A DNA stretch of 64,000 nt, taken from NCBI RefSeq assembly GCF_003334765.1, contig NZ_QOWT01000012.1; one strand, written 5' to 3'. A program made the translations under genes and the position numbers. The notes under the pieces are model-generated. The model did not search any database and had not been told where the DNA came from. It was given only the letters and a program-made list of their open reading frames with translations. This DNA is from Escherichia coli. Lineage in GTDB: Bacteria; Pseudomonadota; Gammaproteobacteria; Enterobacterales; Enterobacteriaceae. Numbering within the stretch: the first letter of the stretch is position 1; each line of letters begins with the position of its first letter. Shown here piece after piece: positions 41,126 through 42,395 of this stretch.

Positions 41126-41773
41126 ATGTATCTTGATACCAGCAACGTACAGAGCCTGAAGGAAAAGCTGCTGTTATGCGCGGTTAATGAATTTGCCGAA
41201 TATGGTTATGAAGGGGCCAGGGTCGATAATATTGTTAAGGCTGCGGGGTGTAGTAAACAGACGGTTTATCATCACTTTGGTAATAAAGAAAATTTATTTA
41301 TTGAAGTACTGGAATATACCTGGAACGATATTCGACAAAAAGAAAAGGCCCTTGATTTCTCAGATCTTCCGCCACAAAAAGCCATTGAGAAAATTATTGA
41401 TTTTACATGGGATTATTATATTGCTAATCCCTGGTTTTTAAAAATTGTGCATAGTGAAAATCAAAGTAAAGGTGTGCATTATGCAAAATCACAGCGTCTC
41501 TTAGAAATTAACCATGCGCACTTGCAGTTAATGGAATCCTTATTGGATGAAGGGAAGAAACACAATATTTTTAAGCCAGATATCGACCCATTGCAGGTGA
41601 ATATTAATATTGCTGCGCTTGGCGGATATTATTTGATCAACCAGCATACGCTTGGCCTGGTTTATCATATCAGTATGGTTTCCCCCCAGGCACTGGAAGC
41701 CAGACGTAAGGTCATCAAAGAGACAATCCTTAGCTGGCTTTTGGTTGACCCTTCATCTACCGCGCACGAATAA
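41126..41773 (+). CDS. TetR/AcrR-family transcriptional regulator
   Basis: ORF track 41102..41773 begins at a TTG; ATG at 41126 after GGGGAAG gives [58 protein letters not shown] (TetR N-terminal helix-turn-helix); 215 aa. Confidence 0.85.
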
Positions 41774-42395
41774 AACTGCCATCCGGCTGGCGGGTGAACA
41801 GGACCTGTTGATTATTCCCCGTATCAATGGTTAAGCCCGTCACCACGCCGCTGGCGTTCTGGCGGATTTTCACCATTTGCCCGTTTTGCAAATTACTCAG
41901 CGGCTTACCCGCGCCTTCTACCTGCGCCATTGCATAGACATCGGTAGCGGGCAGTCCGTGGTCGCGGAACAGCTGCGCCATCGTTTTACCGGGTTCGACA
42001 CGGTAAGAGCGCCATTGATTATCAATTCCGCTATCTGGCTGGAATGGTTGTGTTTGGGTAGTTTGCGGCTGTTCTTCTGGCTGGCCTTCCTGTATAGGTT
42101 CTGGAGCGACCGGAGCCACCTGATCAGGATCATTTTGTGGTGTGACTAATTGCGCCCGCAGCTGTTCTTCTGTCGGCGGTTGTGATTGCGACTGAATATC
42201 TAACTGCGCTTCACGCGTCACCACCGGCGCGTTGGGCGTATCATCAGATGGAAGCAGAAATCCGACCACCAATATAATGGCGGCAATAATGATCCCCCGA
42301 CGATGCATCGGCGGCAGCGGGTCCATGAAGCGAAAATTGTCCGGCGCGTGCCAGACTTTCTCCAGGGTTGGTTTTAGTTCAAAGCGCCCGGGCAT
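41757..42395 (-). CDS. ytfB: Cell-division/peptidoglycan-binding protein YtfB (OapA-domain)
   Basis: ORF track 41757..42431; ATG at 42395 gives [25 protein letters not shown] and 212 aa; 3' end overlaps the TetR gene by 17 nt on the opposite strand. Confidence 0.88.

Follow-up and report, generated by a model that had tools for sequence, protein, structure and literature searches.

Between the core genes rplI and ytfB, different strains of Escherichia coli carry different genes. This raises the question of where the variable segment ends on its right side, and of how ytfB came to overlap the convergent regulatory gene that is found there in some strains. A preliminary description of one such locus placed the right junction of an island at the 3' end of ytfB, where a TetR gene terminates inside ytfB on the opposite strand, and treated the whole segment as an old replacement-type insertion. 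Here we arrive at a different reading, to which we assign a probability of roughly 85%. The junction would be the meeting point of an intact ytfA gene with the core gene ytfB, the arrangement of operon, TetR gene and ytfB would be ancestral at this site in Escherichia, the overlap would be incidental, and the K-12 arrangement would have been reached by deletion.

The window analyzed is a 64,000 nucleotide stretch of an E. coli contig. Positions 29900-44000 are 100% identical to the E. coli strain ML35, and the gene names of the region were taken from the RefSeq annotation of that record. The RefSeq order is rpsF-priB-rpsR-rplI, dctP/dctM/dctQ, FAD oxidoreductase, CoA transferase, enoyl-CoA hydratase, TIM-barrel protein, SDR, TetR/AcrR, ytfB, fklB and cycA. 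By annotation and NCBIfam, the nine genes in the rplI-ytfB interval encode only transporter, enzyme or regulator proteins. The conserved left flank is rplI (31429..31878, plus strand), which encodes ribosomal protein L9 and was identified from its open reading frame and the ML35 annotation (99.8% identity to MG1655). It is followed by an intrinsic terminator (31900..31932, plus strand) with a stem at 31900-31911 and 31916-31927 and a T-run to about 31932. The sequence agrees with the first description in that this hairpin is intact and that the DctP reading frame stops at 31990; the terminator is 100% identical to MG1655 through 31931.

All genes from dctP to the SDR gene are on the minus strand. 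The TRAP transporter cassette (31990..34834; NCBIfam DctP and DctM) consists of dctP (31990-32961, with its stop codon at 31990-31992), dctM (33014-34315) and dctQ (34358-34834). The enzyme genes, assigned with NCBIfam, encode an FAD-dependent oxidoreductase of the FrdA/NadB flavoprotein superfamily (34855..36936), a fused family-I CoA transferase (36933-38474; acyl-CoA:acetate/3-ketoacid CoA transferase in RefSeq), an enoyl-CoA hydratase (38484-39260; the same in RefSeq), a xylose-isomerase-like TIM-barrel protein (39270-40112; sugar-phosphate isomerase/epimerase family in RefSeq) and an SDR reductase (40122-40913; '3-ketoacyl-ACP reductase' in RefSeq). The NCBIfam names of these enzymes are family-level names that claim no substrate. 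The conserved right flank is ytfB (41757..42395, minus strand), which encodes an OapA/LysM-domain cell division protein of 212 aa. A search of the literature on the function of the operon or on a rplI-ytfB island found nothing relevant.

The ninth gene is an intact ytfA (41126..41773, plus strand), divergent from the operon, which encodes a TetR/AcrR-family regulator of 215 aa. Its reading frame can start at 41102 (TTG) or 41126 (ATG, the RefSeq choice) and ends at 41773. Pfam recognizes TetR_N (PF00440) at residues 19-61 (E 3e-14) and TetR_C_29 (PF17938) at residues 83-201 (E 4e-30), and the protein thus has the N-terminal helix-turn-helix and C-terminal ligand domain of the TetR/AcrR family. 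The same domains, the divergent orientation and a palindrome between the divergent genes are found with AcrR, RutR and BetI-like local repressors of this family (TetR_C_29 subgroup). Unlike these repressors, the regulator of the window has a 14-aa C-terminal tail, five codons of which lie inside the neighboring gene. It probably represses the divergent operon, which is predicted to combine a transporter with five enzymes of CoA-dependent acid catabolism. The palindrome, ATCAACCA-N5-TGGTTGAT at 40984..41004 between the SDR and TetR genes, was also flagged as a hairpin and is a conjectural candidate for the TetR operator.

The TetR gene stops at a TAA (41771-41773), and ytfB stops on the minus strand at a TAG that reads CTA at 41757-41759 on the plus strand. 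The TetR stop lies inside ytfB just as originally described, in a 17-nt tail-to-tail overlap (41757..41773) where TetR codons 211-215 and the stop codon are opposed to the last codons and stop codon of ytfB. That the two genes lack a terminator between them was likewise borne out by a terminator scan and RNA folds. The scan gave no intrinsic terminator at the junction, both strands folded there like shuffled sequence (z = -0.9 and -1.3), no significant hairpin or hidden terminator was detected at or just past either stop codon, and no Rfam family was found at the junction. The overlap is statistically unremarkable; an open reading frame that runs antisense into ytfB in the same frame meets a TAA after five codons. 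The feature is an ordinary one and essentially already annotated, as the reference annotation includes both the ytfA pseudogene of K-12 and the overlap of this gene with ytfB.

In MG1655 the ytfA pseudogene (b4205) is annotated at 4427694-4428095 and ytfB (b4206) at 4428079-4428717, which gives the same 17-nt overlap. Alignment of MG1655 with the window yielded 99.8% identity over 31400-31931, 99.0% over 41371-42678 and 100% over 41740-41800. The proposal that the island, relative to the K-12 interval, has its right junction at the ytfB 3' end fails on this comparison, because homology runs left to 41371. K-12 ytfA corresponds to the last 402 nt, or 133 codons, of the TetR gene of the window (residues 83-215). 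The two genes are orthologous, being collinear at the same locus, in the same orientation and convergent to ytfB with the same overlap. They are 99.3% identical over 430 nt, and 41371-41773 is 99.3% identical to MG1655 4427693-4428095. Unlike K-12 ytfA, which is limited to residues 83-215, the gene of the window is intact, includes the TetR_N helix-turn-helix and lies beside a divergent operon. The K-12-type fragment appears in PGAP annotation as 'TetR/AcrR... missing N-terminus', and K-12 ytfA is listed in the literature as 108 aa. Colclough et al. (2019, PMC6790063) include ytfA among the TetR-family regulators and record it in part of the E. coli, and in every E. albertii and E. fergusonii, that they examined.

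A 77-nt junction sequence is identical in four E. coli haplotypes, the K-12-type, TRAP-type, yjfZ/MFS-type and hipBA/MFS-type loci. Since this sequence is common to the haplotypes and 41740-41800 is identical in MG1655, 41757-41790 is not the divide between island and backbone within E. coli. Relative to K-12-type E. coli, the true right breakpoint is inside the TetR gene, at 41368-41375. The ytfB stop codon reads as a block border solely in comparisons with genera or strains from which the entire block is absent.

What lies at this breakpoint indicates how the K-12 arrangement arose. A 102-bp piece from the interior of the SDR gene lies between yjfZ and ytfA in K-12, and it matches 40723..40824 of the window (minus strand; blastn and alignment) with 81% identity. 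In the intact haplotype, the 8-nt direct repeat TCCGCCAC is present at 40827..40834 and again at 41368..41375, where the MG1655 homology starts (41371), and in K-12 it joins the SDR piece to the TetR piece. The 541 bp between the two copies are missing from K-12, and one degenerate copy is left in K-12 and in Escherichia sp. E1V33. At the second K-12 joint, CAGGGA, about 7.3 kb of the yjfZ/MFS haplotype are gone, from the MFS gene through two-thirds of the SDR gene. Microhomology deletion is expected to leave this pattern, in which each end of the missing segment bears a short direct repeat and the joint a single copy. The breakpoint alignment that had been suggested as a check for microhomology thus found an 8-nt repeat, but inside the TetR gene.

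Both K-12 joints and the SDR scar are also present in Escherichia sp. E1V33, in which yjfZ is absent. The scar, the remnant and ytfB of E1V33 are 85-92% identical to K-12, and because this divergence is similar to the interspecies level at ytfB, the deletion allele is considered old. Two microhomology-mediated deletions in an operon-bearing haplotype, one of about 7.3 kb at CAGGGA and one of 541 bp at TCCGCCAC, would have left the SDR scar and the C-terminal 133 TetR codons, still overlapping ytfB. The retention of the 102-bp scar argues that K-12 is a deleted state and a poor 'empty-site' reference. The earlier view of an old replacement-type insertion, as opposed to a recent mobile element, is upheld with respect to age and the lack of mobility marks and reversed with respect to direction: K-12 would have lost the operon, with the SDR scar and the ytfA fragment left behind. 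In this way the ytfA pseudogene of K-12 gains a clear origin: it is probably what remains of the gene that regulated the lost operon.

The distribution of these states was counted over 5426 complete E. coli genomes. The K-12 joint is present in 2227 of the 5426 (about 41%), the TetR 5' half with the promoter region in 3143 of the 5426, and a TRAP-type locus, defined by at least 80% of an 11.1-kb query, in 1451 of the 5426. The operon (MFS or TRAP, FAD, CoA transferase, enoyl-CoA hydratase, TIM-barrel, SDR) is widely conserved in enterobacteria and occurs in about 58% of complete E. coli genomes. About 1700-1800 K-12-type genomes carry IS609 in the remnant, after window position 41666 and 90 nt from ytfB (O157:H7 and ST69 examples were inspected). 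In one strain an IS1-mediated deletion has its edge 3 nt from the ytfB stop. The contents seen between rplI and ytfB are TRAP, yjfZ+MFS, hipBA+MFS, MFS only, yjfZ+remnant, remnant only, forms with IS609, and the IS1 deletion. Several unrelated contents are therefore found within the same core flanks, as in a replacement-type flexible region.

The left junction is at 31931/31932, just after the rplI terminator, and is common to every haplotype seen; homology of the window to the K-12-type, yjfZ/MFS-type and hipBA/MFS-type loci stops there each time. Where the window has TRAP, other E. coli, E. whittamii and Salmonella carry an MFS transporter, and in the non-TRAP haplotypes MFS stands alone or together with yjfZ, hipBA or EamA. 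The TRAP cassette has a GC content of 41-46% versus about 51% in the flanks. In a sliding comparison with MFS-type loci, identity is 60% at 34873-35072, 86% at 35073-35272 and 97-98% in the next interval, and then about 90-100%. Strong divergence from the MFS-type alleles affects the FAD 3' end, from 34855 to about 35270, and the C-terminal peptides are homologous yet different. The lineage-specific part of the window is the TRAP cassette, at about 31932-35270. Homologous recombination with a diverged version of this operon, with the crossover in the FAD gene near 35270, apparently put TRAP in the place of MFS. The gradual rise in identity on the right and the homologous FAD C-termini fit such a homologous replacement with no sharp joint.

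Flexible 'hotspot' regions between core genes are a known feature of E. coli genomes, where replacement-type polymorphism occurs and mobility genes are absent. The locus described here resembles them in its alternative contents between the same core flanks, its common rplI-terminator junction and the absence of an integrase, tRNA or att site. Unlike in them, the variation of content is confined to the left half (yjfZ, hipBA, EamA, MFS or TRAP), and the right half, with the operon and TetR gene, appears to be ancestral and to vary by deletion. It is possible, although we regard it with some doubt, that cassettes at rplI-ytfB are exchanged between species through the conserved flanks and that the operon haplotype was repeatedly re-imported and not inherited vertically. 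At least five alternative contents begin at the same left junction, the rplI terminator. A deeply divergent allele block (40873..41800, 75-85% identity), carried by about 360-400 E. coli genomes such as CX04, extends from the regulatory region across TetR into ytfB, of which it takes in roughly the final 13 codons; its right recombination boundary is about 40 nt into this gene, and the surroundings are about 95-99% identical. Identity to intact alleles is 81% for the SDR scar of K-12 versus 99% for the adjacent ytfA fragment, and the deletion allele is common to E. coli and Escherichia sp. E1V33. However, exchange of this kind is compatible with the main explanation; it alters how the haplotypes spread and not the identity of the junction at 41757-41773. 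In addition, the identities of TetR and the operon between genera, with 87-88% at the amino acid level for the Salmonella TetR orthologues, lie within the range that we would expect of vertical inheritance.

The wider distribution was obtained from a YtfB scan that gave 44 loci, and further block-bearing loci were found through TetR homologues. TetR adjoins ytfB in five of five Escherichia species representatives, with the junction ...CCTTCATCTACCGCGCACGAATAA... conserved save for single-base substitutions. The full operon is present in E. albertii, E. whittamii and one further Escherichia lineage. The block is also found in Salmonella enterica, one Citrobacter, Lelliottia sp. RWM.1 and Entomohabitans teleogrylli, all four with the order rplI, EamA, MFS, FAD, CoA transferase, enoyl-CoA hydratase, TIM-barrel, SDR, TetR, ytfB, fklB, cycA. 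The arrangement of operon, TetR gene and ytfB would accordingly be placed at this site in the ancestry of Escherichia, and held in common with Salmonella, some Citrobacter, Lelliottia and Entomohabitans. Most Citrobacter, Enterobacter, Lelliottia and Leclercia species in the YtfB scan are without the block. Their loci consist of rplI, an EamA-family transporter, a REP-like hairpin and ytfB, or have rplI directly beside ytfB. Leminorella richardii has the same operon gene order and TetR at an unrelated site, which suggests that the block is able to move between genomes. At the family level there may have been one early gain and many losses, or repeated transfer via homologous flanks; both fit.

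Operon-bearing and deleted haplotypes might also represent an ancient trans-species polymorphism under balancing or niche-dependent selection on the operon, perhaps with antisense coupling to ytfB. The joint shared with E1V33, the 14-19% divergence of the SDR scar and the parallel presence/absence that is seen or suggested in other genera lend this idea some support, and we consider it unlikely.

More improbable is the reading of the preliminary description, in which the TRAP-to-TetR segment (about 31.9-41.8 kb) is one old replacement insertion relative to a K-12-like ancestor, with its right end at the ytfB 3' end. Mobility genes, tRNA and direct repeats are indeed all absent, and against genera without the block homology resumes exactly at the ytfB stop codon. 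The last five TetR codons are ytfB antisense, as expected if the end of the block abuts ytfB. For the comparison with K-12 this reading is nevertheless refuted by the 402 nt of the TetR 3' end, the identical overlap and the SDR scar that K-12 contains. It is also at odds with the fact that Salmonella and five Escherichia species representatives have the block with this same junction, and with the separate histories of TRAP plus the FAD 3' end on the one hand and the operon plus TetR on the other.

If the junction is instead that of an ancestral ytfA with ytfB, the overlap has to be explained from the ends of the two genes. It measures 17 nt also in Salmonella and the block-bearing Citrobacter. 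TetR and ytfB are separated by a spacer of 11 nt in Lelliottia sp. RWM.1 and of 15 nt in Entomohabitans, and TetR is 209 aa in each; a surviving spacer goes with a TetR that is about 6 aa shorter. Homologues of TetR with 207-209 aa terminate right after ...SWLL.., and the tail after the last Pfam domain (end residue 201) differs between genera (STAHE, IWRE, ATARE). YtfB ends in FIRAR-stop (or FIRVR-stop) in most genera sampled. Read from the sequence, the TetR TAA is the antisense of the conserved Phe-Ile codons of YtfB (TTT ATT -> AAT AAA). Because the TetR tail is unconserved and the YtfB C-terminus is conserved, the overlap has the appearance of an accident that is tolerated within the constraints of ytfB, and not of a designed element.

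Short tail-to-tail gene overlaps arise by stop-codon loss as a general phenomenon. Here, a short spacer and the native TetR stop would have been lost in the Escherichia/Salmonella/Citrobacter lineage, and the TetR reading frame would then continue for five codons into ytfB antisense, to the first in-frame TAA. Loss of the spacer, as opposed to gain, is the simplest reading of the few lineages on which it is based. As in stop-loss convergent overlaps generally, the reading frame is extended into the 3' end of its neighbor, and the protein is shorter in lineages whose spacer is intact. The one peculiarity of ytfA/ytfB is that the conserved Phe-Ile codons of the neighbor determine which stop is used. 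The CX04-type TetR is 212 aa and has a TAA of its own that lies directly against the ytfB stop, with an overlap of zero; the YtfB Phe-Ile codons are TTC ATC in this allele, and their antisense has no TAA. Since the CX04-type allele stops on its own, the overlap is not universal within E. coli.

The least credible of the graded alternatives, that convergent ytfA/ytfB antisense transcription or interference couples operon regulation to ytfB and explains the retention of the K-12 remnant, might draw on the lack of an intrinsic terminator at or near the junction for either gene, on the 17 nt kept in Escherichia, Salmonella and one Citrobacter, and on the about 400 nt retained downstream of ytfB in the K-12 and E1V33 deletion alleles, but those remnants share one deletion joint and point to a single event, not independent retention, about 1700-1800 genomes tolerate IS609 90 nt from ytfB and one genome IS1 3 nt from its stop, the spacers are 0, 11 or 15 nt in other lineages, and the TetR tail is unconserved. 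The overlap has no evident special function, and the main value of the analysis is the correction of K-12 as a reference.

An integrase- or tRNA-associated mobile genomic island is not supported by any of the features by which one would be recognized, namely gene, tRNA, repeats and empty site. No tRNA or tmRNA was detected by ARAGORN in 29000-45000, and no integrase, recombinase or transposase is among the annotated ML35 genes between rplI and ytfB or at the edges. A repeat search for flanking direct repeats at the borders gave nothing beyond chance-level 14-16-mers, with no repeat that pairs the two borders, and junction alignments against loci without the block showed no att sites or direct repeats. 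On these points the annotation, ARAGORN and the repeat search match the first account of the locus, which had noted no integrase, transposase, tRNA or flanking direct repeat. K-12-type loci are not an empty site either, as they keep TetR codons 83-215 and the SDR scar.

The YtfB C-terminus had been named as a feature that should be unchanged in carriers of the segment. It is the same in the four E. coli haplotypes that share the 77-nt junction, with K-12-, TRAP- and MFS-type loci identical to one another and to several other genera, and an altered C-terminus in carriers is thereby ruled out. Only two C-terminal variants of YtfB were seen: the CX04-type allele has S>N, and the IS1-deletion strain has R>Q.

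The block of a transporter, five enzyme genes and TetR that lies between rplI and ytfB is also found outside this chromosomal setting. Leminorella richardii carries the MFS form of the block, with the same five enzyme genes and TetR (locus L056, 2210-10627), at an unrelated chromosomal site, flanked by an adenylosuccinate-lyase-like gene on one side and on the other by a LacI-family gene beside a hydrogenase cluster. From this difference in location it follows that the block has been transferred between genomes at least once. Its transporter also varies. The TRAP dctPQM cassette (window 31932-35270, GC 41-46%) stands where other haplotypes have the MFS transporter, and the FAD-oxidoreductase gene acquired its strongly diverged 3' end together with the cassette. 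The implied event is homologous replacement, with a diverged copy of this operon as the source. In the divergent SDR/TetR intergenic region, the palindrome ATCAACCA-N5-TGGTTGAT (window 40984-41004) is a candidate TetR operator.

The regulatory end of the block exists as a deeply divergent allele (75-85% identity) in approximately 360-400 of the 5426 complete E. coli genomes. It covers the regulatory region, TetR and the final ~13 codons of ytfB (window 40873-41800; compare 10943-11840 of L008, the E. coli CX04 locus), and the surrounding DNA is otherwise ~95-99% identical. The CX04-type TetR is 212 aa long with the C-terminal end ...VNPARG* and adjoins ytfB with no overlap, and the accompanying YtfB carries an S to N substitution close to its C-terminal end. 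CX04 also has two additional hypothetical genes in the cycA-ytfE interval (15113-17796), which are absent from the other loci inspected.

In K-12 the deletion left a 102 bp scar of the SDR gene (3088-3189 of L059, the MG1655 locus) whose identity to intact alleles is only 81%; for the adjoining ytfA fragment the figure is 99%. The same deletion joints are found in a second species, Escherichia sp. E1V33 (L011), which suggests that the deletion allele is old and possibly trans-species. In roughly 1700-1800 K-12-type genomes, IS609 (tnpA and insQ/tnpB) has inserted within the ytfA remnant at window 41666/41667, 90 nt from the ytfB stop (loci L006, 5317-7028, and L007); the carriers inspected were O157:H7 and ST69 strains. 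The operon and TetR were lost from E. coli 14EC033 by an IS1B-mediated deletion (L005, 6248-7003), where 3 nt separate the IS1 end from the stop codon of ytfB and YtfB ends in FIRAQ.

At the rplI side, the slot adjoining the rplI terminator, which holds yjfZ or is empty in other strains, is taken up in E. coli EC958 (ST131; L004, 2381-4142) by an HTH gene and by a hipA-family toxin gene with a frameshift. Two ytfB matches, L050 and L038, look like contamination or mis-binning of public assemblies: a 267-bp contig labelled Alkalicoccobacillus porphyridii, with 100% protein identity to E. coli YtfB residues 1-77, and a MAG labelled 'Thermoanaerobacteraceae' that contains an Enterobacter-like ytfB.
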